From a bacterium (GTDB lineage Bacteria > Hydrothermota > Tepidihabitantia > B3-TA06), in contig JAAYVC010000095.1 in NCBI GenBank assembly GCA_012517375.1, positions 7,061 through 71,060 on the forward strand: 64,000 nt of DNA, in the 5' to 3' direction. This document shows positions 12,648 through 58,558 of the stretch, piece after piece. A model generated the notes under the pieces. That model was given only the letters and a program-made list of their open reading frames with translations, had not been told where the DNA came from and searched no databases. Made by a program: the position numbers and the translations under genes. Position 1 is the stretch's first letter, and each line of letters begins with the position of its first letter.

Positions 12648-13805
12648 ATGCGCTGGTTGGGAAAGCTGGCCGAACAAGAAAATGTAAAGTTATACCTGGT
12701 CGGCGGTGCAATCAGGGATAGATTGAATAAGGATAATACCTTAGACATAGATCTTGCGTGTGAAGGCAGTGTAAAGCATTTTGGGAAACGTCTTGCCAAA
12801 GAACTTGATGCAAAATTCATATACTACCCATCATTTCAGACGGGAACGATTGAATCCCTACAAGGCGCTAGAATAGACTTAGCTGCAACAAGGAAGGAAA
12901 CTTATCCCCGAAAAGGCGAACTACCTAAAGTCGAACATGCATCGATACATGAGGATATTTATCGTAGAGATTTCACAATAAACGCAATCGCCGAATCCCT
13001 AAACCCTGGTGAATACGGTAAGATTCTTGATCCCCTAAATGGAATTTCAGACATCAAAAAAAGATTAATCCGAGTGTTACACGACGAAAGCTTTGAGGAT
13101 GACCCGACCCGCATCTTCAGAGCCGTGCGTTATTCGGCAAGACTAAGATTCCGTATTGAACCCGAAACTTTTAATTTGTTAAAACGGTCGGTACCAAGAC
13201 TGATTAAGCTTTCTGGAGAACGGATTCTTTATGAGCTCAAATGTATTGCAAGAGAGGATAGCAAGGTACGCGTAAATACTATCAAACGATTAGAAGCGCT
13301 AGGCGCATTGAATTTTCTTGGCAAGCCTCTCAGGCCTCTCTCCCCTACTGAGTTGAACCGGATTTCTTCTGATGATTCATGCGCTTTTTTATGTTTTTTG
13401 CTTTCACATTTCGAAAATGCTTCTCTGTCAAAACTGCCCTTGAGCAAAAGATGCCTGAATACAATTGAAACCATATCCAAGATATATATATTGCAAACAG
13501 AACTAAAAAAACCTCGCAAACCTTCTCAGATTACTTCCGTCCTTAAGAAATATGATGAAAGAGGATTAGAGATAATTACCGTAACGAGCAAATTCAAAGT
13601 TTTCCAGAAAATAATAAGCTATCTTGAGAATTACAGCAAAATCAAAATAAAGACTACAGGAGAAGATCTCAAACGTCTTGGGATTAAACCTGGGCCAAAA
13701 TATGGTGAAATACTCGATTTAATTCTCAAAGCAAGACTTGACGGTTTAATAGAAGGGAAAAAAGAAGAAATAAGATATGCAAAGAAATTTCTCGAAGGAT
13801 GCTGA
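12648..13805 (+). CDS. tRNA nucleotidyltransferase / poly(A) polymerase family protein (CCA-adding-like head domain).
   Basis: I trimmed to MRWLGKLAEQENVKLYLVGGAIRDRLNK...DIDLA. The GG.RD and D.D nucleotidyltransferase motifs are present. Confidence 0.7.
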   Translation: MRWLGKLAEQENVKLYLVGGAIRDRLNKDNTLDIDLACEGSVKHFGKRLAKELDAKFIYYPSFQTGTIESLQGARIDLAATRKETYPRKGELPKVEHASIHEDIYRRDFTINAIAESLNPGEYGKILDPLNGISDIKKRLIRVLHDESFEDDPTRIFRAVRYSARLRFRIEPETFNLLKRSVPRLIKLSGERILYELKCIAREDSKVRVNTIKRLEALGALNFLGKPLRPLSPTELNRISSDDSCAFLCFLLSHFENASLSKLPLSKRCLNTIETISKIYILQTELKKPRKPSQITSVLKKYDERGLEIITVTSKFKVFQKIISYLENYSKIKIKTTGEDLKRLGIKPGPKYGEILDLILKARLDGLIEGKKEEIRYAKKFLEGC

Positions 13806-27684: not shown

Positions 27685-28233
27685 CTACTCTATTTCGTTA
27701 ATCCAGCGGTTGAATCCTTCAAGAGCTTCTTTGCGATACATATACAAGGTGTAATTCTTTTTTCCCAAGGTCAACGTTCCCTTTCCGCCAGGAAGTCCTG
27801 TGAAAACGGTAAGAACTAACTTGATTGTACCTAGTTGCTCCCCAGAAACGATTTGTCCTAGTTCGGTAACCTTGCTTGAAAATACTTTGGCTTCCAGATA
27901 GTTGCTGCTCAATTCAATGACTTCAAGAGGATACGTATTGTATCCCAACCTGATTGCCGATGGTTTTACTAAGACTTTTTGACTTACCGGAACCGAACCC
28001 ATTGAGGTTTCAGCCGCCTCAAGCTCTTGAACTCTCGAATATATCTTTAAGACAAAAGTCTCCGGGTTGACTTTAGCAGTATCAACGGGCGGGCTTTCGT
28101 AGGCAAAACCCAAACCTATTAACTCTAAGGTGTATACGCCTTCTTCACTAGAAACCGTTCCATAAGGTAAATCGGCTGCTTGTATTACTCCTATTACCCC
28201 TAAGAAGACAACCCAAACCACGACACGCTTCAT
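27685..28233 (-). CDS. Hypothetical secreted protein.
   Basis: It has a signal peptide and is 182 aa. Confidence 0.4.
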   Translation of the reverse strand: MKRVVVWVVFLGVIGVIQAADLPYGTVSSEEGVYTLELIGLGFAYESPPVDTAKVNPETFVLKIYSRVQELEAAETSMGSVPVSQKVLVKPSAIRLGYNTYPLEVIELSSNYLEAKVFSSKVTELGQIVSGEQLGTIKLVLTVFTGLPGGKGTLTLGKKNYTLYMYRKEALEGFNRWINEIE

Positions 28234-28259
28234 GATAAGCCTCCTAAGACATTCTAAAT

Positions 28260-29945
28260 CTACAACGCAATTATGTCAACGCGGCGATTCATATCCTGGC
28301 CAACTCTCGTACGATTATTGCCACGAGGTCTGGATTCTCCGAATCCAACAACACTGATTCGATCGGAAGATATGCCGTTTCCTACAAGAAAGGATTTAAC
28401 AGATTCAGCGCGTTTTACCGATACGTAATAATTTGATTCCGAATCGCCTACGCTGTCAGTATTTCCCTGAAGTTCAATCTTAACATACGGATTTGTTTTA
28501 AGGATATCGACAACCTGCTGCAGCATAGCATAGTTTTTTGGAGAAACAAACACTTCACCTCTGCCGAAATATACAACTGGAAAAACAAGTGGTTTTGGTT
28601 GAGGTCCTTCAGCAGATTTCTCAAGCCTGAAATCTACCACAAGTTCATCTGCTTCCTTAAGAAGCATACTCTTATGTGATTTTTTGTAGGCATTTGCTTC
28701 TACATTGACCTTATAGGTTCCGGCAGGCACTATTGCTCTATAATAACCAGATACAGGATCACTCTTAAAGGATGAAATAATTGTATCTGCGCTAATATTG
28801 ACAAACGAAAGTACCGCTGAAATCGGATCTCCATCAACTGCATCGGATACTACGCCTACAACTGTTGCTCCTGCTGAATATTTGGAAAGCTCTAGCATTA
28901 CCGTTCCGCCTTCGAGCTCAATTAATTCCGAGGCGGTCTTTGTTGCTAAATAATCTGGATGCTCTGCAAGCAATGTGTACTCTCCAGACGGTCTGGATAT
29001 CGTAAACCGGCCATCGGGACCTGTAGTATAAGGTTCTATATCAGAAGATCCTTCAATTGATATTTTTGCCCCTTCAATAGGCTTCTGAGTTTCTTTATCC
29101 ACAACAAGTCCGGATATCAGTCCTTCTTTAGATGGCATCAGATCAAAACCCAGTCCAAAGCCGGCTAGCGCATGCCAGCGGAAAGGCGTCTGCATAGGCT
29201 CAAGCTCAGCACCAAGATTGATATTGAACTTTACGACTCTTCCGCCAAAACCGAAGCGCAATCCAGGAGTTACTCTTAAATAATTTGCGAAATTTGCGAA
29301 ATCATTAGATGGAATCCTTGCAGTACCGTCAACTATTATTCCTGCGAACTTGAAAGGCCAAATCTCAAGTCCGGCTCCTCCAAGAACATTGCTAGTGGTT
29401 GTAGGTCCTGTTATGTATTCATATCCGCCATTTAGATGAATGCCAAACCAGGCGGCATTAAATGTAAACAATCCAAGGCCGCCAAAACCGTAACTTTGTG
29501 CAGGCGTTCCCAAGCCGTGCATGTACGCGAAACCGTCTATGCCCGGCGCGATATATAAGTTGTTGTTTTCATTGAAATATATAGGTATTCCGCCTTTGAC
29601 CGAAAGCCCGAGATCGTTGTAAAAATCAGAAACTGCCGAACTGTAATTTCCTATGGTTGCATATCGACCGTGCCCCCACAGACCAAACTCAAGGTAATGC
29701 CAGGGCGTAAAAGAAAGTCCAAAGTATGGCAGCACTTCTGTAAGTTGCGCAGTTACCGTATCATTGCCAATCACCGTATCCTGGATATTTATCATCGTTC
29801 CAAGGGCGTTCAAGTCGATGGTAAGCATACCCATATCTTCACAGCTGCCTGAGTAAACGTTGTAAGTTCCGCGATTACCGAGATTTGTGTTGTAAGCAAA
29901 AGCGGCGGTCAAAACCAAAAGTGCTGAAATTAAGACTTTCCTCAT
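28260..29945 (-). CDS. OmpA-family outer membrane protein with carboxypeptidase-regulatory-like domains.
   Basis: It has a signal peptide and CarbopepD_reg-like segments (GLVVDKETQKPIEGAKISIEG...PDGRF). The C-terminal OmpA peptidoglycan-binding domain reads ...LQGNTDSVGDSESNYYVSVKRAESVKSFL...NRRVDI. Confidence 0.8.
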   Translation of the reverse strand: MRKVLISALLVLTAAFAYNTNLGNRGTYNVYSGSCEDMGMLTIDLNALGTMINIQDTVIGNDTVTAQLTEVLPYFGLSFTPWHYLEFGLWGHGRYATIGNYSSAVSDFYNDLGLSVKGGIPIYFNENNNLYIAPGIDGFAYMHGLGTPAQSYGFGGLGLFTFNAAWFGIHLNGGYEYITGPTTTSNVLGGAGLEIWPFKFAGIIVDGTARIPSNDFANFANYLRVTPGLRFGFGGRVVKFNINLGAELEPMQTPFRWHALAGFGLGFDLMPSKEGLISGLVVDKETQKPIEGAKISIEGSSDIEPYTTGPDGRFTISRPSGEYTLLAEHPDYLATKTASELIELEGGTVMLELSKYSAGATVVGVVSDAVDGDPISAVLSFVNISADTIISSFKSDPVSGYYRAIVPAGTYKVNVEANAYKKSHKSMLLKEADELVVDFRLEKSAEGPQPKPLVFPVVYFGRGEVFVSPKNYAMLQQVVDILKTNPYVKIELQGNTDSVGDSESNYYVSVKRAESVKSFLVGNGISSDRISVVGFGESRPRGNNRTRVGQDMNRRVDIIAL

Positions 29946-29982
29946 GTAAAGCCTCCTTTAAAAGATTTCCACATTCAAAAAG

Positions 29983-30034
29983 CAGAAATACATTTCTGCG
30001 TGTAATATTTTACAATAGAACTAAGGATTTGTCA
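29983..30034 (-). promoter_or_regulatory. Sigma70 promoter (TTGACA-N17-TAAAAT) for the OmpA-family gene, with a perfect 7-bp inverted repeat CAGAAAT-ac-ATTTCTG over the transcript start.
   Basis: The reverse strand reads gggacTTGACAaatccttagttctattgTAAAATattacacgCAGAAATgtATTTCTGc...AGGAGGctttacATG. Confidence 0.55.
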
Positions 30035-30312
30035 AGTCCCTTTAGACCTGAACTTAACTAACAAAAAATGAGCTCGTCAAGGCGCTGTAAATGCATGCTC
30101 GTCTTACTGGCTGTAAGATATTCCTTGCTTAAACTTATGATGAGTATGTTTTTACAACCTCTCGAATCCGCTATAAAGTTATCCACAATCCACAATTCAA
30201 GGAATAAGGCAGGCATAAGTGCAGTGATTCATTAATCCTGACTCGGTTTGTGGCACGCTTTCCGCTCGCCGTAGCACGCTTGAGGTCAGGTTTTATGGAC
30301 AAATACTCCCCA

Positions 30313-30356
30313 AAAGCTGGTCAAAAGATGGTCAGAAGATGGTCAAATGATGGTCA
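30313..30356 (+). repeat. Four tandem copies of the 11-bp direct repeat RAWGMTGGTCA.
   Basis: The copies are AAAGCTGGTCA AAAGATGGTCA GAAGATGGTCA AATGATGGTCA. The same unit recurs at 53412-53444 and 53542-53607. Confidence 0.9.
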
Positions 30357-30748
30357 ATTTCGAGGGTGTTGGGTGCTCAGGTATTGTTTTAAGACCCGAT
30401 CCACTGAGTGAAAGCCGACCCTATTTCTTTGTAGAGATTAAGCAGGTCGGTTTACCTTGTGCTCTTGAGCTTTTCCTTAGTCTTGGGTTCGGACAGGCCT
30501 TGTGGGAACTCAGGAGGATAATAAATAGCAATAGCCATATCTGCGCTTAATTGCTCTATTCTTTTCTTAGCATCGGCTTCGGCATCTTGCTTGGAGTAGG
30601 AACCCTCAAGAACAACGGCAAGACCTTGATAGGAAACAAGGACATCCTGTCTTCCCTTTTTCCCTATTAGTTCGGCTCTTGAGATAATGCCTGTTTGGTG
30701 AAGTAACTCTGACAGGTAAACGTTTAGAATACTCTCATAAACAAACTT

Positions 30749-32974
30749 CTACTTCAGTATCACGAACTTGACGCGCTCGGAGCGCGCGGCAAAGCGCACG
30801 ACCGCTATGTAGAGCCCGGCTGAAAGGTTCTGCACCCCGAGCTCCGCCTGTTTTACGCCCTGTATGGTTCGGAACCCGGACGAGGGAATCTCCGCAACCC
30901 TCTCCCCTGCCAGGGTGTAGATGACAACGCTTTGCGCGTCGTCGAGCGGCGTAAAGCGCACGGGCAGTCCAAGCGACGCATAGCAAGGATTAGGGTATAC
31001 GGATATTTTTTCAGACGTTGTGTCGGTGTATTTGGGCATGGTGAAGAGTGACACCCCTCCCCCTGCAGTGCCTATTGCAACACGTCCGGTGCGGTCCGCC
31101 GAGAGCGTCGTGTAGTCGAATCCCGGCATGATGGAGCTGTTGGATGTCGTGAAAATCTGCCACAGCCCTGCGGAGGTGTCGTATGCAGCGCCTGCCGGAT
31201 CGTGCACCAGCAAGCCTTTGTGCTTCATGAGGAAGTACAGTCTGCCCCAGGGATCCCGGTCCACGTCGACAATATCGTTCTCCATCATCGAAAGGTTGTT
31301 CTGGTTGTAGCGGGTTGTTGAGTTCTGGGTCCAGTGGAACACTCCCTCATTGGTTGCGCCCCAGCATCCGCCCCGGCCGTCCAGAGCTATGCCCGTAACC
31401 TTGGAGTTCGTAAGAAGACGCTCGCTGAACTCGCCGTGCTCGAGGTCGGAGACGAAGTCCTGCGGCTTGTATGAGATAAGTCCTGCGCTTGTCGCGGCCC
31501 AGAGCGTGCTGGAGTCGAACTTAAGGTCCCAGACATAGTCGTAGGGCCAGTCCAGGACCGCAATCTCTTCGAGGTCATCTGATAGGACGCGCAGCTGGTT
31601 CGAGTAGAATATGGAGACCCAGATCCTGTCCAGAGGGTCAACCGCCAGCCATGAAACCCTGTTCGACACGGGCGAAGCGCCCCATGAGTGCTCCTCCCAT
31701 GCGCCCGCGACCGGATCGAATCTTGTAACGCCTCTGCCGCCCCACCATCCTCCGAAAACAACTCTTCCCTTTGAATCAACGGCAGTGATCTTGGTGGATG
31801 CGTCGAAATCTACGGTATCATTCTCCGTATAAGCCCTGTAAATGAAGTTCTCCCAATGCCCATCGTGATATCGTGTGACGCCTCGTTCATTATAAGCAAA
31901 CCAGTGCGCGGTCCAGAGGTTCTGATTATCATCAAGAAGCGCGTGGAATATGTAGTTCGAATTAAGCCCAGGATTGTCTACAACCTTGACGCGATTCTTC
32001 TTCACGTCCCAGACAACCAGGCCGTCTCCTGCGAACTCACCTGATGCTCCCGCCCATACTCTTCCCGAAGCGTCCGTCCTTACGCAGGAAATCGTCCTCA
32101 TCCAGTGAGGGGCTGTGCCCGCAGATGCGTTTATCCAAAACCCGATAGTATCAAGCGTATCGAGAGATTCTACGTATCTGAACAGACTCTTGTAAGTCCC
32201 TGAAATTCCGAGCGTGGAAACGTAAAAAGTGTCTCCTGCCTCTGCGATAGAAGTGAACTGGGGCAGGGGGTCCTGAAAGGCATAAACAGTCTTGAAGAAG
32301 CCGGAATCCGCATCGTATCTGGCAAACCCTTTCGAACACAGCGCAACCATGGATTCTTCGATGCATACGTCTGCAACGTCGGAGGATGGAAGCCCTTTTG
32401 AAATCGCATACCACTGAGTTGAGTCTCCATTAAGATAGTAGCGCAACAAACCTATGGATGTCGCCATCCATAAATCCCCCATGAACCATGCGGCCTTTCG
32501 AATCGAATACTCTTGAGAGTTCTCAGGAGTAAAAAAGAATACATCGTCATCTTCAAAGCTGCCGGGTGTATTCATCGTTCGTATGATATAGATCCCTGTC
32601 TTTGTCACCACTGCAAGCGTATCTCCGGACAAGGCAAGAGAGAAAACAGTATCAGAAATACCCTGGTAGCGCCTGGCCGCGCCCGAAGAAGGCACGATAA
32701 GGGCCAGCCCAAGATCGGTTCCGGCCCAGAGTTCACCCGTTTGAGTAATGGCAATAGCCCTCGATGTGTTGTGAGGCAAACCGTCCGTGTTTCTGAACGA
32801 GAGCGTAAATGAAGAGTCCTCCAGCGAAAAGAAATGGACTCCGCCGTTAGTCGCGCACCATGCGCCTTCGTCCGAGGGCGCGATGTCGTAAATCCTGTTG
32901 GAGTTCAAAAGACTTGTCCATTCTCCGGCCTTTATGCTTGAGAAAAAAAGGATTGCTGTAAAAAAAGCTGTCAT
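30749..32974 (-). CDS. Secreted beta-propeller protein (two-component-regulator-propeller-like repeats) with a T9SS-type C-terminal sorting domain.
   Basis: It has a signal peptide and repeated ...GGV/GL..F...W.. propeller-like blocks. The C-terminus is AGLYIAVVRFAARSERVKFVILK. GC is about 60%. Confidence 0.6.
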   Translation of the reverse strand: MTAFFTAILFFSSIKAGEWTSLLNSNRIYDIAPSDEGAWCATNGGVHFFSLEDSSFTLSFRNTDGLPHNTSRAIAITQTGELWAGTDLGLALIVPSSGAARRYQGISDTVFSLALSGDTLAVVTKTGIYIIRTMNTPGSFEDDDVFFFTPENSQEYSIRKAAWFMGDLWMATSIGLLRYYLNGDSTQWYAISKGLPSSDVADVCIEESMVALCSKGFARYDADSGFFKTVYAFQDPLPQFTSIAEAGDTFYVSTLGISGTYKSLFRYVESLDTLDTIGFWINASAGTAPHWMRTISCVRTDASGRVWAGASGEFAGDGLVVWDVKKNRVKVVDNPGLNSNYIFHALLDDNQNLWTAHWFAYNERGVTRYHDGHWENFIYRAYTENDTVDFDASTKITAVDSKGRVVFGGWWGGRGVTRFDPVAGAWEEHSWGASPVSNRVSWLAVDPLDRIWVSIFYSNQLRVLSDDLEEIAVLDWPYDYVWDLKFDSSTLWAATSAGLISYKPQDFVSDLEHGEFSERLLTNSKVTGIALDGRGGCWGATNEGVFHWTQNSTTRYNQNNLSMMENDIVDVDRDPWGRLYFLMKHKGLLVHDPAGAAYDTSAGLWQIFTTSNSSIMPGFDYTTLSADRTGRVAIGTAGGGVSLFTMPKYTDTTSEKISVYPNPCYASLGLPVRFTPLDDAQSVVIYTLAGERVAEIPSSGFRTIQGVKQAELGVQNLSAGLYIAVVRFAARSERVKFVILK

Positions 32975-32993
32975 CTGTCCCCCTTATATTTGT

Positions 32994-35900
32994 TTATTTT
33001 AATTCATCCAACGCTTCCTGCGCCCGCATCCCGAAGGGGTCGTTGATGCCGCGCGAAGCGATGATGGCCTCGAAAATAACCCTTGCATCCTCAAGACGCT
33101 CGAGCTGAACGTAGCCCGAACCGGCCTGGAACCAGCTCTCGAGTCCCCACTGATCCTGCGGGAATTCATCGTGACATTTAAGGAACAGGGAGACCGCCTT
33201 CTCGGTATGCTCAGGGTCTGCAAAAGCGGCGTACGAACGGGCAGTCCAGTAAAGGAGCCTTGCTCTGTCCTTCGTGACGAGCGGAGTGGCCTTCTCGAAG
33301 TACGTGACCGCCTGCGAAAACTTGTACGCATTGTATGCCGTTATGCCTAGTTCGGTGTAAAGATCGCCGCGCTCCTCGGGAGAGCTGGATTCGTTCACAA
33401 GGGTTTCAAAATACTCGAAGGCTTTGTTGTATTCCTCCTTGTTCCTTGCAATAACGGCAAGATTGCGAAGAGCTGAGGAACGAAGATCAGGGTCCGCGAG
33501 AGCGTCGGAATAATGCAGGGCGGCGCTGTCAAGCTCCTGGATCATGTAGAAGAGCGTTCCCAGCTTGAAGTGAACGGCGGGTACAAGCTGGCTGCGCGGA
33601 AAGGCTTCGAGGAACGCCTTGAAATTCTCGAGGGCTTCCTCCTGCCTGCCGGCTTTTGCCGCAGTCAATCCTTTATAGTAGATGTAGTTCTCGTTGCGCA
33701 TGAGCGAACGAACGTTCGAAAGGGACGAAAGTACCTTGTCCGCTTCGTCAACACTTCCCGCGTTGAGAAGATAGCCAACCTTTTCAAGAAGCAGTGCGGA
33801 CTGGTCTCCTGGACTCAGCAGATCGAGCCTCATCCACAACGAATCCGCTTCCTTCAGTTCGCCGGAGCGGTAGAGCGCCGTCACGAGTTTGGATAGAACG
33901 AGCGTATCCGTAGGGTTGGCCGCATAGAGTTTTCGCAAGGTTGCGACGGCGTTTGAGTCCTCGCCGCCGGCAAGCTGGTGCTGAGCGACCAGGAAGTCGG
34001 CCTTTGATACAAGACTCGAATCCCTGCCTTCACTGACCAGACGTTCAAGCAGATGCCTTCCGAGTCTGTTGTGATCAACGAGGCTTAATCCGACTCCGGA
34101 CCAGTAAAGATATGGGTCCTTGAGCGCAGCGGGCCTCTGATGCATCAAGCTTTTGACATCGTCGACCTTTGCAAGCTGGCTCTCGACTTTCGCGACCTTA
34201 ATCCAGAACGAGATTTCGTCCTGGTACTCCGAATCCTCGAGAGCGCGTGCAAACTCATCCAGTTCGTTGTACTGCCTCAGCTTGAATATGAGTCCGAGCG
34301 CTTTGTGCCAGATATCCCGCGGTATCACGCCGAGCTCGACTGCCATGTTTCTGTAAAGCGAAAGCGCCTCAAGATTGCGTCCTCGAGACTCCTCTATCTC
34401 GGCCAGATTCTTTAATGCAAGATAATAGACAGTATCGTGGGGAGATATTGAAAGTATAAGGTTGAACTTCGCCGACGCGTCGCTTGTATCAGCCTCAAGC
34501 AGCGCCAGCTCCGCTAGCTCGTACAGCACGGGAAGATTGTAGGAGCTCTTCGGTTTTGTCAGATAAAGATTCTCCCACTCGCTTCGGGCCGCAACAGTAT
34601 CGCCAAGAGAAAGCTGGACACCGCCCAGAAGGAAACGGATTTCATCCGAGTAGCGGCCTTCGGGAAAGTGGTCGAGATAGTTGAGCGCCCTCTCCATCTT
34701 CTTCAGGGGATCCCTTAGTTCTATGAGGAAGAGACGGTACAGAGCGTCCTCGACGAGAGCGTCCTCAGGAAACTGCCAGTATAGATTCTCGTATCTCTCC
34801 CTTGCCTTGTCAAGCAATCTAACCTTGCCATCCTTCAGGTAAAGGCGCTCATAGGACAAGGCGGAGTAGTAAAACGCCTGAGGAGTCGCAACGGTATCAA
34901 GGAAGGAGATTGCGCCCTCGTAATCCTTCGCATCCTCGAAAAGAATCTTGCCCTTCTCCGAAGAGGTCGTTGCCCTTACCAGTTTTTTTAAGGCGGCATC
35001 GGCGTCTTTGAATTCAAAGTATTTAATGATGTCAGCTTCCCTCTGAACCTCGGAGCGGTTTACCGAATAAGGCGCCCTTTTAAGGAAATCGCTATAATAA
35101 TCGAGCGCTTCCTTGGGAAGTCCTCGCGAGTTTGCAAACCTTGCCCTTCTTAAGATGTCCTCTACCCTTTCGAATTTCGACAGAGAAAGAAGTCTATCGT
35201 ACGTCTGGAAATCTTTCTTTTCGCTGAGTGCATCCAGCACTTTTTCGAATTCATCCCATGTCTTGAAGCTGGCGTCTGTCAAAGCCCGTGCATCGTATTC
35301 GAGTCCCGATAGTATTCTTGCCTTCGCCTCGAGGGCGCGATCGGATTGAGTGAAGGAAAGCTTCTTTCGAGCATCGTCGTAAGCCTTAAGGGCTTTTGGC
35401 GTATTGCCCAGAAGCGAATAGGAAGAAGCAAGGGGAAGCAGGGCATCGTAATAATGCTGTTTTGAAGCCGATTCAAAGTACTCGACCGCATCCTCGTAGA
35501 GAGAGAAACTCTCGAAAAGTTTACCCAAGGCGTATGCCTGCGCCGGGTTGATTGTCGACGGCTCGCCCATTGCAAGACCCGCCTCCATTGAAGAAAGGCT
35601 GTCTGCCCTTGCAAGGGTTGCATCTATCTGAAGCGAAGCAACAGTTGCCGCAACCTGCGGATAGGTTTTTTCAAGATCGGCAAGATACGGTCTCAGGAGA
35701 TCTTGTCTTCCTGCGGCAAGAAGCATCTTTGCACCCATGAGCCGCAGATCAGGGTCGTCAATGGTCATATAGACATCGCGCGCGCGCTCGTACTCCTTTG
35801 CCTCCTCGAGTTTCATTGCGAGGCGAAGCTTCACGTCCTTCGCAGGTTCAAGACGCGGATATTTCATGAATAGTTCGTAGGATTTTGCGAGCTGCCCCAA

Positions 35901-46772: not shown

Positions 46773-48266
46773 TCAGTCCTTCTTCGAATCCTTGCCGGCA
46801 AGGGCTGCATCGAAGTATTTCGCAAGATTCTCATCACGGACGCGCTTCATTTCAGATCTTGGAAGCGTGGTCAGGAGCTCCCAGCCCAGGTCGAGCGTAT
46901 ACTCTATTGTTCTGTTCTCATATTCCGACTGGGAGATGTAGCGGCGTTCGAAATCCTCCGCAAACTTCATGTAAAGCTTATCTATATCCGTGAGAGCGGC
47001 CTCTCCGAGAATGACCGCAAGTTCCTGAGCCTCTTTCCCTCTCGCGTAAGCCGCATATAGCTGATTGAAGGAATCGGCATGATCCTCACGAGTCTTGCCT
47101 TTGCCGATGCCCTTATCCTTCAAACGAGAGAGAGAAGGAAGAACGTCTACGGGAGGCGCGACGTTCTTGTTGTTGAGGACTCGGGAGAGGATTATCTGAC
47201 CTTCGGTGATGTAGCCTGTGAGGTCGGGAATAGGATGGGTCTTATCGTCCTCAGGCATGGTAAGTATGGGTATGAGGGTTATGGAACCCTTAGAGCCTTT
47301 GATTCTTCCGGACCGCTCATAGATAGTCGCAAGATCAGTGTAGAGATAGCCGGGATAACCGCGCCTGCCGGGAATCTCCTTTCTTGCTGCCGAGATCTCG
47401 CGAAGCGCCTCGCAGTAGTTGGTCAAATCGGTCAAGATGACGAGAACGTGGTAATTCTTTGTAAAAGCCAGGTACTCGGCTGCGGTGAATGCCACGCGCG
47501 GTGTTGCGATTCGCTCGATTGCCGGGTCATCGGCAAGATTAAGAAAAAGGACGGTGCGTTCAAGAGCGCCAGTGCGTCGGAAATCCTCGATGAAAAACTC
47601 TGCCTCCTCGAAGGTAATGCCCATTGCTCCGAAGACGACTGCGAACTCCTCGCCCGTTCCAAGAACCCTGGACTGCCGGGCAATCTGCGCGGCCATGCGG
47701 TTGTGAGGAAGACCGGAACCTGAGAAGATGGGCAGCTTCTGACCGCGAACTAGCGTGTTGAGGCCGTCGATGGCGGAGATGCCTGTCTGGATGAACTCGT
47801 TAGGGTAGCTTCTTGAGAAAGGATTGATAGGAAGACCGTTTATGTCCCTGAACTCCTCGGGTATGATTGCGGGAGAGTGGTCGCGCGGCCTGCCAAGACC
47901 GTCGAATACCCTGCCTAAAAGCTCTTCGGAGACACCCAGGGTGATGCCCTTACCGAGAAAGCGCACGCGTGTTTGGCCTATTTCGATTCCGGACGAACCC
48001 TCGAATATCTGGATAAGAGCCTTATCCTGGTTGACCTCAAGCACTCTGCCCCTGCGGCGTTCGCCTGACGGAAGGTAAATCTCAACGAGTTCTTCGTATT
48101 TGACTCCCTCCACTCCCTCGACAAGAAGCAAAGGCCCTGCAACTGAGGAGATAGTCTGGTAATCGGTTATGCCTTTAAAGGCTCTAGTTACATCTGATGC
48201 ATCACTGGTGTCGCTGGTGCTACGGGTGTTACGGGTATTACTGGTATTACGGGTGTTACGGGTCAT
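46773..48266 (-). CDS. atpB: V-type ATP synthase subunit B, with an unusual ~27-aa low-complexity N-terminal extension.
   Basis: The core from [36 protein letters not shown]... onward aligns with the NtpB/AtpB consensus. The N-terminal [26 protein letters not shown] is encoded by 9-bp tandem repeats. Its ATG overlaps the atpA stop. Confidence 0.9.
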
Positions 48267-52125: not shown

Positions 52126-53121
52126 ATGAAGTTTTTCTTAGGAGTTATACTTGCAGTTCTGGGTTCAACTGCAGACGATGAAGCCGTAGTCAACGCAATA
52201 CCCGGAAAGGTGAGCATTCTCAACTATACAGAGGCTGAAAACCTGAGAATCTATCCCCTATCCTACTCCGGCGACGCTAAAAGCTTTATGGTTCTCAAGG
52301 ATGCCCTGGATAAAGGGCTCGTCGTTGTCAAGGAAAAGGACGAAGGCGAAGTCAATACAGTACTTGTGAAAAATAAGGGATCGAACTCCGTTTTCGCGAT
52401 GGCAGGCGAAGTCATCCTCGGCGCTAAACAGGACCGAATGATAGAAAACGACCTTATCCTTCCACCGAACTCCGGATGGCTCGAAGTCGCAGTCTACTGC
52501 ACCGAACACGGCCGCTGGTCAGGCTCAAGCAAGGAGTTTGCAGCCGCAGACATCAACGTCTCGCCTTCTGTACGAGCCAACGCACGGGCGAATAAAAATC
52601 AGTCAGAAGTCTGGGCTAAAGTAGCTGAGAATCAAGAGAAAGTAATGGGCGGCGCTTCTTCAACCGGCGCATTCAAGGATATTTACGATTCAAAATCCTA
52701 CCAGGGCGACCGCGACAAGTACTGGAAAAAGCTCAAAGACCTTGCCGACAACAACTCAAACATGAAGGGCGTTATCGTATGCGTAGGCGATGAGGTTGTA
52801 GGGATCGACCTCTTCAGTTCCCATACGATGATGAAGAGCTATTGGCATAAGTTGCTGGATTCTTATATAGTTGAAGCAATGCAGGGCGATCAGCACGGCT
52901 CCGTCTCATGGCAGGAAGCAAAAGACCTTTTGAATGAATACACAAAGGCAGACCTCGACGACGAGTATACTCCGGGATCAGGTGACTTATACGAAGTCGA
53001 AGGCGGCGATTCGCAAGGTTCTGTGATTCTTTCAGGCGGCATTCTCGTGCATACCGACCTGTTTCCCGAGCAAACCTCTAAGCCCGTGATTGACGATTAC
53101 AACCAACGATACAACGAGTAG
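52126..53121 (+). CDS. Hypothetical secreted protein.
   Basis: It is 331 aa with a signal peptide. I recognised no catalytic motif. It starts 16 nt after tonB. Confidence 0.45.
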   Translation: MKFFLGVILAVLGSTADDEAVVNAIPGKVSILNYTEAENLRIYPLSYSGDAKSFMVLKDALDKGLVVVKEKDEGEVNTVLVKNKGSNSVFAMAGEVILGAKQDRMIENDLILPPNSGWLEVAVYCTEHGRWSGSSKEFAAADINVSPSVRANARANKNQSEVWAKVAENQEKVMGGASSTGAFKDIYDSKSYQGDRDKYWKKLKDLADNNSNMKGVIVCVGDEVVGIDLFSSHTMMKSYWHKLLDSYIVEAMQGDQHGSVSWQEAKDLLNEYTKADLDDEYTPGSGDLYEVEGGDSQGSVILSGGILVHTDLFPEQTSKPVIDDYNQRYNE

Positions 53122-53199: not shown

Positions 53200-53232
53200 G
53201 CGATCGCCGCCACAATAAGTGGCGGCGATTTG
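53200..53232 (+). terminator. Perfect 11-bp-stem hairpin ATCGCCGCCAC-aataa-GTGGCGGCGAT, probably the terminator of the 52126..53121 gene.
   Basis: It was seen directly in the sequence. It is followed by TTTGCTTAAGTTATT. Confidence 0.5.
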
Positions 53233-53411
53233 CTTAAGTTATTCCTTTCCTTAAGTTATAGATTGACTTAAGCTGAGGGATTCAATTCCTACGACACGTA
53301 ATAAGTGACGGCGATTTACTAAGTTATTTTTTATTTTTATTTCGATGGAACCAAGCGCATCTTTCTAAAAGGGTCCCCGCAAAGCTGCGGAGCAGGTTTG
53401 TGGGATAGAAA

Positions 53412-53444
53412 AAGATGGTCAAAAGATGATCAAAAGATGGACAA
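53412..53444 (+). repeat. Three tandem 11-bp repeats of the RAAGNTGGTCA family.
   Basis: The copies are AAAGATGGTCA AAAGATGATCA AAAGATGGACA. Confidence 0.85.
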
Positions 53445-53492
53445 TTCGGGAAATTTGCCTTCCAAAATGACCAAATAATAGGGACAAATTTA

Positions 53493-53520
53493 AAACCGCC
53501 ACTCAGGGCGGTAGGTTTTC
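53493..53520. terminator. Bidirectional rho-independent terminator-like hairpin.
   Basis: The sequence is aaACCGCCactcagGGCGGTaggttttctc. It is T-rich on both sides. Confidence 0.5.
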
Positions 53521-53541
53521 TCGGAGTATTTTTCGTGAAAA

Positions 53542-53607
53542 AAAGTAGGTCAGAAGTTGGTCAGAAGTGGGACAAAAGATGGTCAAAAGCTGGTCAAAAG
53601 ATGGACA
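53542..53607 (+). repeat. Six tandem 11-bp repeats of the RAAGNTGGTCA family.
   Basis: The copies are AAAGTAGGTCA GAAGTTGGTCA GAAGTGGGACA AAAGATGGTCA AAAGCTGGTCA AAAGATGGACA. Confidence 0.9.
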
Positions 53608-53806
53608 AATCAACCGCTAAGATGAAGTCAGATTTAATAGTTTGTTGTCAGGTTCAATGGAACGCCTCAGAGCAACATTCCAATGTCATTGCGAGGCTTC
53701 ATCCAGAAGACGAAGCAATTGCCCAAATCATCTTGATCTTTACCCTCTCCTCAGGAAGATGATTCAACGTAGGGGCCGACTTTCAAGTCGACCCGCACCG
53801 CTCGGG

Positions 53807-56781: not shown

Positions 56782-57097
56782 AACGCTCGATTATACGGGC
56801 TTTGGGAACGAGGTCAACTCGTGCGGCCCTGTTCTCGACAAAAAGGAATAAATTTCTACACAGGTTGTATTGCGAGTATACTATAAACTTGCGAGACAGC
56901 AAGGAGGGCGCGCCTGGAAGGCGCTTGGCGGAAGTTTTACTTCCGCAATTTTACTGCCGGTCTTTAAGGAGGCGCCTGGGCGGCGCCGTGTTGAACCCAA
57001 TGCTGCGATGGGCGTCATGGGGTCCCTTGAAAATCACAGAGTGATTTTCAAGGCTGGTGTTTCCTGTCTCCGTAAAACAAACCTAAAGGAGATAACA

Positions 57098-58558
57098 ATG
57101 TCAACCCTGAAAAAACTAATGGTTATCGTCGCAGTGATGCTTGTGAGCGCAAGCCTTTTCGCCGAAAGGATTGAAGGCTATGCCAGCCCTTGGGCCGTCA
57201 AAGGCATCTCACAAGTTTATGTTAACTACGGATATCTGGGTCACGACGACTACGGGGTTTATGGCAAAGATAGCTCAAGCAATAACCATGGATATCTTGG
57301 TTCAGACGACTACGGTGCTTATGGAAAACATTCTTCCTCGGGCAACTATGGATACCTGGGTTCATATTATTACGGGGCCTACGGATACGACAGCTCGTCA
57401 GGAAACTACGGGTACCTGGCACACAACCTTTACGGCGCATATGGAAGGAGCAGCGGCAATTACGGTTATCTAGGTTCATCTTCCAACGGCGCATACGGCA
57501 GCAGCTCTTCGGGCAACTACGGCATTCTTGGATCTTCCAGCTATGGAGCCTACGGAAGATACACCAACGGCAACTACGCATATCTCGGCGGTTCCACGAA
57601 AGCTTTGGGCTCATACGCGGCGACCGCGGCCTCTTACGCCGCCCACTTCTCTCATATCAGCGGCTCATATATGTATCTTGGAGCCAATTCGTACGGGGCG
57701 TTCTTCCATGGCCCGGGGTCGTCCTCGGCAACTATTTGCAACTCCTCGGATATAGGAATCGGAGCGTACGGTCCTGAAGATGCCGCATACTTTACGGGCG
57801 ACGTTACCGTTTCGGGCGACCTTTACGTAACAGGCGACAAGGACAACGTGATCAAGCTCGACGACGGCACGTGGGTCACCATGTCGGCAACCGAGGCGCC
57901 CTATCCGGAGTACACGATATCGGGACGGACAAAGCTCTCCAACGGCACAGCGAGGATAGAGTTCGATGAGCCGTACCCAAAGGTGATTTCAAAGGAAATC
58001 CCGATAAAGGTAATCGTGACGCCCGAAGGTTCTTACAGCGGCATATACGTGAAGGACGTGTCGGTAAATGGTTTTACGGCTGTTTCCGATGTTGGCGACC
58101 GCAACGCGACCTTCAGCTGGATGGCTATTGCGCGAGTAAAGGGGAAGGAACAAAAGACCGACTACGGGGCGGTCACAGCGAAGATGCAGAAGCTTGAGGC
58201 CTCGCAGAGGCTGCTCGGGCTCCCGAATCGCAATACACCGATGGAACACGAGGAAGCTTTGGAGCCTCGGAAAATCCAGTCGCTGCCGGAGCTTCGTCTT
58301 TCAGCGCCTGAGCTGAGTGCGGGTAATTTGACCATCGAATACGAGCTACCCACTGCTTCAAGCGCAACCCTTTCCGTTTTTGACGAATCAGGCAGGCTGG
58401 TGCGGACGCTTGCGAGCAGTCAAATGAGTAAAGGCAATCACATCCTCTTCTGGGATCGCACGGACGACGCGGGCCGTGCGGTATCCGCAGGCGTCTACTA
58501 CATGAGACTCGACGCCGGCGCCGACACAAAGACGGCGAAGGTGACTATCGTCAAGTAA
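57098..58558 (+). CDS. Secreted Gly/Tyr-rich tandem-repeat protein with a T9SS-type C-terminal sorting domain.
   Basis: I trimmed to MSTLKKLMVIVAVMLVSASLFA (signal peptide). It has about 7 repeats of about 17 aa (NYGYLGSDDYGAYGKHSSSG...). The C-terminus is GVYYMRLDAGADTKTAKVTIVK. Confidence 0.7.
   Translation: MSTLKKLMVIVAVMLVSASLFAERIEGYASPWAVKGISQVYVNYGYLGHDDYGVYGKDSSSNNHGYLGSDDYGAYGKHSSSGNYGYLGSYYYGAYGYDSSSGNYGYLAHNLYGAYGRSSGNYGYLGSSSNGAYGSSSSGNYGILGSSSYGAYGRYTNGNYAYLGGSTKALGSYAATAASYAAHFSHISGSYMYLGANSYGAFFHGPGSSSATICNSSDIGIGAYGPEDAAYFTGDVTVSGDLYVTGDKDNVIKLDDGTWVTMSATEAPYPEYTISGRTKLSNGTARIEFDEPYPKVISKEIPIKVIVTPEGSYSGIYVKDVSVNGFTAVSDVGDRNATFSWMAIARVKGKEQKTDYGAVTAKMQKLEASQRLLGLPNRNTPMEHEEALEPRKIQSLPELRLSAPELSAGNLTIEYELPTASSATLSVFDESGRLVRTLASSQMSKGNHILFWDRTDDAGRAVSAGVYYMRLDAGADTKTAKVTIVK

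Follow-up and report, generated by a model that had tools for sequence, protein, structure and literature searches.

A dispersed intergenic element of helically phased 11-bp repeats in WOR-3 bacteria

Three arrays of an 11-bp direct repeat occupy two intergenic loci, A and B, in a 64,000-nucleotide stretch of a bacterial metagenome contig (JAAYVC010000095.1, positions 7,061 to 71,060; the whole stretch is called the window). We show that these arrays belong to a mosaic element which is specific to the WOR-3 lineage and dispersed through its intergenic DNA; no description of it was found in Rfam, in phage and plasmid records or in the searchable literature. The arrays are probably strongly bent, protein-binding DNA. 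We tentatively favour the reading that they are platforms for cooperative protein binding at junctions of the recombination or landing-pad type, because of the behaviour of the adjoining DNA between strains, the proximity of tRNA genes, the joint absence of array and cargo from one relative (L330) and a precedent in phages. An array of binding sites for a transcriptional regulator is the main rival.

Results

Phased arrays at two loci

Tandem Repeats Finder assigns a period of 11 to positions 30311–30357 (4.3 copies), 53410–53444 (3.2 copies) and 53541–53609 (6.3 copies). A search for TGGTCA-N5-TGGTCA with at most one mismatch returns seven matches in the window, all on the forward strand and all within the three arrays; in 100 dinucleotide shuffles, the mean number of such phased pairs was 0.26 and the maximum 2. 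Outside the arrays, TGGTCA occurs 8 times on the forward strand and 11 times on the reverse strand, against approximately 14.5 expected per strand, with neither enrichment nor strand skew, which rules out a Chi-like dispersed motif (GCTGGT...). The array ends, ...TGGTCAATTTCGAGGG and ...TGGACAATTCGGG, both match the conserved downstream block of the repeat family described below. A first-pass annotation of the window had reported head-to-tail 11-bp arrays with similar ends at both loci, and these results bear it out. It had also allowed for random, unphased scatter of the motif or for an assembly artefact. Neither was found: phased matches in the window are confined to the arrays, and independent assemblies of other samples contain the same arrays (L314 and L316; matched loci are given L numbers). 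The window arrays are thus confirmed as real and not the product of a single assembly. At least 12 short-read contigs terminate within arrays, as repetition or variability of the sequence would lead one to expect.

Each unit sets an A-tract and a TGGWCA core on one face of the helix. Curvature was estimated with a dinucleotide wedge model, and the values are indicative only. All 15 of the most curved 90-bp windows in the 64 kb fall on the three arrays, and the ratio of end-to-end to contour length in the arrays is 0.68–0.80, compared with a window median of 0.97. Under this model the arrays are the most curved DNA of the window, because A4 tracts recur every helical turn. The strict one-turn geometry is of the kind that cooperative DNA-binding proteins use, and in this respect the earlier description of phased protein-binding repeats stands; the two specific identities it offered, OmpR-type boxes for the flanking genes and iterons, do not (see Discussion).

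As RNA, the arrays are unstructured (z = 0.35 to 0.75) and only the flanking hairpins fold. Rfam searches (gathering threshold or E ≤ 1) gave no match except one chance small nucleolar RNA hit elsewhere in the spacer. A known RNA family or structured RNA was rejected on these two grounds, and a Rho-loading site in the TGACCA sense on the ground that orientation to neighbouring genes is mixed.

A dispersed family with modular flanks

A pattern scan of metagenomes for two TGGTCARAAGN units followed by TGGTCA returned 66 loci, about half of which have arrays with mutually shared flanks that are also partly shared with the window. A generic genome scan added at least three genome contigs named Stahlbacteria or WOR-3 with arrays and flanks of this family. 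Generic scans for three TGGTCA-N5 units are too unspecific to define it, and the loci they returned are among the matches listed. Altogether the family comprises approximately 45 arrays, of 3–9 units each, in WOR-3, Stahlbacteria and TA06 metagenome-assembled genomes (MAGs) and metagenomes. In a set of 40 arrays with 194 units (3–7 units per array, most commonly five), the unit is AAAG-N-TGG-(T/A)-CA: position 5 may be any base, position 9 is T or A, and the other positions are 87–100% conserved, a range inflated by the collection of units through similarity to the consensus.

The flanks are modular. Upstream lies a box termed M1, AACTCGTCAGGTTTGAGTGNCACTCGTCAC; downstream lies the D block, which consists of phased T-tracts (TTTTGGGGNNA) in three copies; and a hairpin module, M4, reads GGGGTCCCCGC...GTGGGGTAAAAAAG. 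The whole module of 200–250 bp is repeated, nearly identical, ahead of unrelated genes, and several contigs hold two or three arrays, mostly on the same strand. What the window copies share with the family is the array itself, the CAGGTTT motif, an M4 module ahead of B1 and, following A and B1, the first part of the D block. The M4-type module of B1 is also present in L262, L281, L327 and L328, and the sequence 'caggttttatggacaaa' in the upstream flank of array A is identical in L259. A hidden Markov model of the M1 box finds no match in the window, indicating that the window flanks have diverged from the family consensus.

Arrays are found in every configuration of neighbouring genes: upstream genes are 20 minus and 11 plus, and downstream genes 18 plus and 15 minus. 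Clustering of open reading frames from the family loci revealed no neighbour present throughout and no recurrent enzyme. Only DUF2254 membrane proteins recur, as paralogues at five loci in three array subfamilies, always with the array upstream; apart from these, no neighbouring gene could be put forward as the binding protein. The family module has no match in 72,556 PLSDB plasmids or 50,697 GenBank phages, the M1 box is absent from IMG/VR, and a literature search by unit sequence and topic gave nothing relevant. An early guess from the motif GCGATCGC, that the arrays are cyanobacterial HIP1/STRR repeats, was ruled out by the WOR-3 taxon.

Further short tandem repeats lie downstream of the arrays in L259, L265, L270, L280, L282, L291 and L334. 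They consist of a GCGACTTCGTCGC hairpin and, after it, tandem copies of short A-rich units, for example CAAAATG; (CAGCTGACGG)n runs occur in L259, L265 and L334, and in L334 the repeats take up approximately 800 nt of the spacer. Among the matches listed there are also multi-copy TGGTCA-core arrays from Cloacimonadota (L150, L215, L228, L230 and L176) and from Bacteroidales, Rikenellaceae and Ignavibacteriales (L145, L149, L178, L180, L194, L208, L226 and L241). These have the 11-bp spacing with different spacers (TGATG; TTCAA), and some stand amid other short repeats; two of the Cloacimonadota copies adjoin masked stretches.

Strains part at the end of the array

In L316, another strain of the same species, the sequence is identical to the window from the OmpA-like gene through array A, which has three units there instead of four, and through the 20-bp D block. 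Beyond the D block, 20 bp from the array, the two strains part. L316 continues with 3.2 kb containing a 1051-aa Type IIG restriction-modification (R-M) gene (PADLOC E = 9.5e-288), which is preceded by TTGACA-16-TATTCT and starts approximately 65 nt beyond the array and approximately 45 nt past the breakpoint. In its place, the window strain has a unique 369-nt remnant with a 5'-truncated open reading frame (30452–30748, minus strand), which matches no Pfam family and is without a relative in the loci retrieved. This 98-codon frame has no start codon, follows the stop codon of the 741-aa gene directly and in frame, and resembles what is left of the C-terminal part of a gene since lost.

Other loci behave in the same way. 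L332 and L333 encode an identical OmpA-like protein, with four and nine units and different cargo: a HATPase_c_3 protein with a partner in L332, and Ymh with a BglII-type endonuclease in L333. In the orthologous sets L257/L304, L282/L297 and L270/L274/L212, the upstream side and the array are kept and divergence begins directly after the last unit. Genes co-oriented with and following arrays include a Type II methylase with an EcoO109I-like endonuclease, another methylase, a PDC-M68A HNH protein, a PD-T4-6-type kinase and, at five loci, the DUF2254 membrane proteins. It can safely be said that the arrays occupy variable regions rich in defence genes and that the breakpoint is on the D-block side.

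The arrays themselves also vary. Between the window and L314, 9 of 99 aligned array positions differ, whereas the remainder of the spacer has 4 differences in 497 positions (Fisher p = 2.8e-5). In sequence and unit number, the arrays change approximately 12 times faster than the flanks. The differences in unit number are three versus four at A, three versus four at B1, and four versus nine in L332 and L333. In strain L318, the second unit of array A begins with AAAGC instead of AAAGA, and the contig ends within the array. A second strain-variable spot lies 3 kb from locus B, where L314 (9066–12028; window 56870–58558) has two unknown genes besides one for SSB, and the 562-aa FlgD_ig protein gives way to a different gene of 463 aa.

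Both loci recur in related species

Judged from the sequence neighbourhood, related species have arrays at the chromosomal positions of both window loci, the outcome of a check that the first-pass annotation had proposed. At locus B, arrays again follow the ARPP-1 terminator in two related species (L327 and L328, with V-type ATPase A subunits 87% and 84% identical to that of the window). L327 has nearly the same architecture as the window, namely M4, three units, D block, 'cgtgaaaaaaaag', three units and D block; L328 has M1, six units, two units, M4 and one unit. The gene beyond the arrays differs in both. At locus A, an M1 box and array lie approximately 300–500 nt upstream of the OmpA-like gene in L332 and L333 (OmpA-like protein 70% identical) and in L334 (65%), and L255 and L280 have the same upstream flank as L334. 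L330 and L331 (74% identical) have neither array nor inserted genes at this position, where there is only a 368-bp spacer.

Three species share the TonB/ARPP-1 gene pair with an array after it; in the window, the ARPP-1 domain protein (52126–53121) lies upstream of locus B and adjoins a TonB C-terminal-domain protein. An 86-bp duplication (53214–53320), absent from L314, copies part of the ARPP-1 terminator hairpin (AATAAGTGGCGGCGATTTGCT / AATAAGTGACGGCGATTTACT).

tRNA genes and phage attachment sites

At least seven family arrays directly follow a tRNA-Ser, tRNA-Gly or tRNA-Tyr gene in the same orientation. A comparable arrangement occurs in phages. Sixteen marine contigs share one layout, in which the gene for a 379-aa integrase, bearing an Arm-DNA-bind_1 domain of the lambda type, ends ahead of three TGGTCAAAAGT units; after these come approximately 55 nt, a tRNA 3' fragment and, 220 bp from the array, a fourth co-oriented unit. 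Four of the 16 are also in the IMG/VR viral collection. This is the layout of a classical attP, and its units are likely integrase arm sites. The polarity of the tRNA-adjacent WOR-3 arrays is that of the phage site, and the unit TGGTCAAAAG is identical; this likeness is partly imposed by the search pattern, and thus shows a possible use of such a unit and not homology. Two more viral contigs (L104 and L114) have TGGTCA/A-rich arrays adjoining integrases. In the WOR-3 family loci, phmmer and motif searches found no linked integrase.

Another viral contig of 13.3 kb (L044, IMGVR_UViG_3300045988_055724) encodes a protein-primed-type DNA polymerase B and has four TGGTCAaagaa units in each of its inverted terminal repeats (1–110 and 13240–13346). 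Such arrays may stand at the ends of a linear replicon.

Promoters beyond the arrays

An exact co-oriented TTGACA lies 53–108 bp downstream of 12 of 37 arrays, in approximately seven independent contexts, compared with one antisense TTGACA downstream and no sense TTGACA upstream. In most cases, a plausible –10 element and then a co-oriented gene follow, and conservation of the module stops just past the –10. Neighbouring genes tend to point away from the array. In the window strain, neither locus A nor locus B has a promoter of this kind.

Chromosomal setting of the window copies

The closest labelled homologues of the V-type ATPase A subunit come from candidate division WOR-3 (80–83% identity). 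The window belongs to a metagenome contig of 117 kb, which by sequence is chromosomal and comes from a WOR-3 bacterium. Locus A is flanked by the 3' end of the 741-aa gene and the 5' end of the OmpA-like gene, with no gene co-oriented with the array downstream of it in the window strain, and locus B separates ARPP-1 from rmuC, whose 3' ends converge on it (Table 1).

Table 1. Positions of array features in the window
Feature	Position	Strand	Remarks
Upstream flank of array A	30238–30302	+	Imperfect inverted repeat CCTGACTC...GAGGTCAGG; CAGGTTT at 30288–30294; degenerate TGGACA unit
Array A, four head-to-tail AAAG-N-TGGTCA units	30313–30356	+	
D block downstream of array A, ATTTCGAGGGTGTTGGGTGC	30357–30376	+	End is the breakpoint between strains
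Variable segment at locus A	30377–30745	no strand	369-nt remnant here; 3.2 kb in L316
M4-type hairpin module ahead of array B1, GGGTCCCCGCAAAGC...CAGGTTTGTGGGA	53371–53405	+	
Array B1, three units	53411–53443	+	Four units in strain L314
D-block-like end of B1, AATTCGGGAAATTTGCC	53444–53460	+	
G+C-rich hairpin between B1 and B2	53495–53512	no strand	T runs on both strands, bidirectional terminator-like
Array B2, six units	53542–53607	+	Several units off consensus (AGGTCA, GGGACA)

The genes between the two loci (30.7–53.1 kb) encode type IX secretion system-tailed proteins, a tetratricopeptide repeat protein, peptidases, bactofilin, ParAB, histidyl-tRNA synthetase, the V-type ATPase, TonB and ARPP-1. 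They are ordinary housekeeping genes in an order kept in relatives, so the arrays do not bound a mobile 22-kb block. Those at 30.7–51.3 kb are on the minus strand and are not delimited as a unit by the arrays. The bracketing of this block, to which the first-pass annotation drew attention, is coincidental: each locus is conserved independently, and one related species lacks array A. The arrays neither regulate nor mobilise the genes between them. The remark of the first-pass annotation that no response regulator or Rep protein is encoded nearby holds in a larger region, since the window and approximately 12 kb of extra flank contain no integrase, transposase, Rep or response regulator (Trans_reg_C/Response_reg). 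There are no tRNA genes in the window, and no tns or cas genes among its proteins, which rules out CRISPR-associated or Tn7-like transposon ends.

Near array A (28000–34000), G+C content steps from approximately 0.40–0.42 (1–30 kb) to approximately 0.52 (30–50 kb). This join is not a misassembly, because the gene order across it recurs in independent assemblies and related species. Upstream of the OmpA-like gene, at 30179–30196, a perfect DnaA box, TTATCCACA, overlaps a 7-bp tandem repeat (ATCCACA, 2.3 copies); similar TTTCCACA motifs occupy the equivalent position in related species. DnaA boxes do not cluster in the window, and so neither this site nor the arrays can be taken as a replication origin. 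A 9-bp tandem repeat (GGTGTTACG, 5.3 copies; 48216–48263) lies at the 5' end of the V-type ATPase B-subunit open reading frame, adjoining the end of the A-subunit gene.

Discussion

On the tentatively preferred reading, the array would serve as a platform at recombination or landing-pad junctions. We infer that a sequence-specific protein, whose gene lies elsewhere in the genome, would bind it cooperatively and head to tail. This binder would resemble those that recognise 'arm-type' accessory sites when lambda-family elements recombine, either an integrase N-terminal domain or a Xis-like factor, and the platform would mark or promote the landing-pad junction that joins acquired cassettes to the conserved chromosome. 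The window copies would be old and partly decayed, A standing beside a cassette remnant and B1 and B2 forming a tandem pair without remaining cargo. A more specific version is distinctly unlikely: array and core-like CAGGTTT box together would form an attI-like landing pad at dozens of sites, into which a recombinase or arm-binder encoded elsewhere inserts or swaps integrase-less, mostly defence cassettes.

In its working, the element is most like arm- or Xis-type site arrays or the platform of integron attI, and it cannot be counted in either class, since an integrase is not linked, a core could not be defined and attC is missing. With the arm arrays of lambda-family integrases (P'1–P'3 of attP) and Xis sites it shares units of approximately 10–11 bp arranged head to tail, one per turn and at least three in number, beside a junction. 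The marine phage contigs provide the closest case, the identical unit flanking a tRNA-fragment core beside an arm-domain integrase, and several family arrays follow tRNA genes with the same polarity. Unlike arm sites, the family has many chromosomal copies and up to nine units, with no linked integrase or Xis in approximately 45 loci; array A is on the conserved side of the breakpoint, and many family copies are followed by an outward consensus promoter. Like attI, the family has accessory direct repeats beside a fixed point, variable cassettes beyond it, some of them for defence, and often an outward promoter. Unlike attI, it lacks intI and attC between cassettes, there are many platforms instead of one, and cargo is in both orientations. 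We found no attC-like imperfect palindromes at cassette ends.

Several observations weigh against a platform for recombination. Homologous recombination between dispersed copies could give the same junctions without a dedicated protein. The array at locus A is on the conserved side of the breakpoint and not within the exchanged DNA, as a classical attP arm would be. The other boundary of this locus shows only a weak 11/14 match and no core-type direct repeat, and no core sequence or flanking direct repeat is definable at the locus. Only one tyrosine recombinase is encoded among the approximately 45 family loci (L270, 5.5 kb from the array), and available Pfam annotations of the window and its 12-kb flank contain no other recombinase-type families. 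A few defence-type hits are also upstream of arrays, indicating an association with defence-rich regions and not strictly with one side. The orientation bias of the promoters, 12 sense to one antisense, is not predicted by a recombination role. The inflation of the unit conservation and the search-imposed likeness to the phage sites, both described above, count here as well.

The promoter bias and the DUF2254 association are best explained by the main rival, a cis-regulatory array, which we regard as possible and on balance rather unlikely. In this account, one monomer per turn of a transcription factor, of the OmpR/PhoB/ArcA type or a silencer of acquired genes, would control the promoter that follows, and the bend and D block would aid contact with RNA polymerase. 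Direct repeats with 11-bp centre-to-centre spacing, three to seven per array, are also found in the operators of these regulators (pho boxes, ArcA direct-repeat elements). In a third of the family, a promoter lies downstream of the array; neighbours tend to point away from the array, and the predicted curvature is strong. Unlike such operators, however, the family has a core, TGGWCA, that is not a described box, and its arrays end at least approximately 55 bp upstream of the –35 and do not overlap it. Locus B and at least four related arrays lie between convergent genes, A has no co-oriented downstream gene in the window strain, and only 12 of 37 arrays have TTGACA in the position expected. 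The array at locus A is retained beside cargo that differs in identity and orientation, and whole 200–250-bp modules, not the sites alone, are repeated nearly identically ahead of unrelated genes. Consensus promoters need no activator, no regulator gene is linked, and the units drift fast between strains. The proposal that the arrays are OmpR/PhoB boxes for the flanking genes is therefore not upheld. A related idea, that gain and loss of 11-bp units upstream of R-M or defence promoters acts as a contingency switch that tunes expression between cells, is very unlikely. Short repeats tune expression in phase-variable R-M systems; here, unit number differs between strains at all loci compared, assemblies break in arrays and R-M genes follow several of them. 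A one-turn unit, however, keeps the phase and leaves the –35/–10 spacing unchanged, many arrays have no downstream gene, and phylum-wide sequence conservation is atypical of contingency repeats.

The convergent-gene copies and the lack of a fixed neighbour are what would be expected of a selfish or neutral mosaic repeat (REP/BIME, BOX or Correia-like) with no host function, spread by recombination or by an enzyme acting in trans; its junctions would arise through ectopic homology or homology in horizontal transfer, with promoters and terminators riding along. Like REP/BIME, BOX and Correia/ERIC elements, the family is multi-copy, strictly intergenic and modular, has variable internal units, stands at rearrangement junctions and can carry promoters or terminators. 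Its modules (M1, array, D block, M4 hairpin, (CAAAATG)n and (CAGCTGACGG)n) are variously combined, its copies lie in all gene-orientation contexts, unit number varies, substitution is faster than in the flanks, the window copies are partly degenerate, and divergence between orthologues begins at unit boundaries or within M1. We nevertheless consider this account unlikely. The unit is kept across the divergence of WOR-3, Stahlbacteria and TA06, and in the same position despite OmpA-like proteins of only 65–74% identity; neutral minisatellites seldom persist over such divergence. Within arrays, position 5 is free and the others are fixed, which points to recognition rather than slippage. The core is a direct-repeat array instead of a palindrome, there is no inverted repeat between the array flanks, and neither terminal inverted repeats, target duplications, a linked transposase nor a RAYT-like transposase was seen. 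A role at the RNA level, as a protein sponge, a C-rich Rho-loading site in the TGACCA sense or part of a structured non-coding RNA, is highly improbable. In the TGACCA sense, D block and array carry CC every 10–11 nt in a G-poor context, and all three window arrays are then downstream of minus-strand genes; against this, there is no Rfam match, the arrays are unstructured, their orientation to flanking transcription is mixed, and the promoters downstream of arrays point away. Scarcely credible, finally, are iterons of the origin of an integrated plasmid or phage, the first-pass annotation having suggested plasmid-type iterons, or centromere-like repeats of the ParR/parC type. Some Rep and ParR proteins use 11-bp tandem repeats, R1 parC having ten 11-bp ParR sites, and tandem units with predicted cooperative binding would resemble these; parAB genes lie 9–13 kb from both loci. 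The family, however, has no Rep, ParR or ParM, and the ParAB are of the ordinary chromosomal type, in a position kept in relatives. DnaA boxes (18 versus 11.5 expected) are scattered without a cluster, there are dozens of chromosomal copies at many loci, and the module has no match in the plasmid and phage collections searched.

Under either the junction or the regulatory reading, the arrays account for the breaks of short-read assemblies at these points, and they are a clear natural example of helically phased DNA with strong predicted curvature. If they are regulator sites, they would define a large regulon of acquired genes. If they are protein-bound junctions of cassette exchange, they would give a sequence-level handle on the assembly and turnover of defence islands in an almost uncultured phylum; an array would then predict adjoining variable cargo and serve as a simple hotspot marker in MAGs. 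Should capture occur at many such platforms, the arrays would organise the building of defence islands throughout the WOR-3 phylum.

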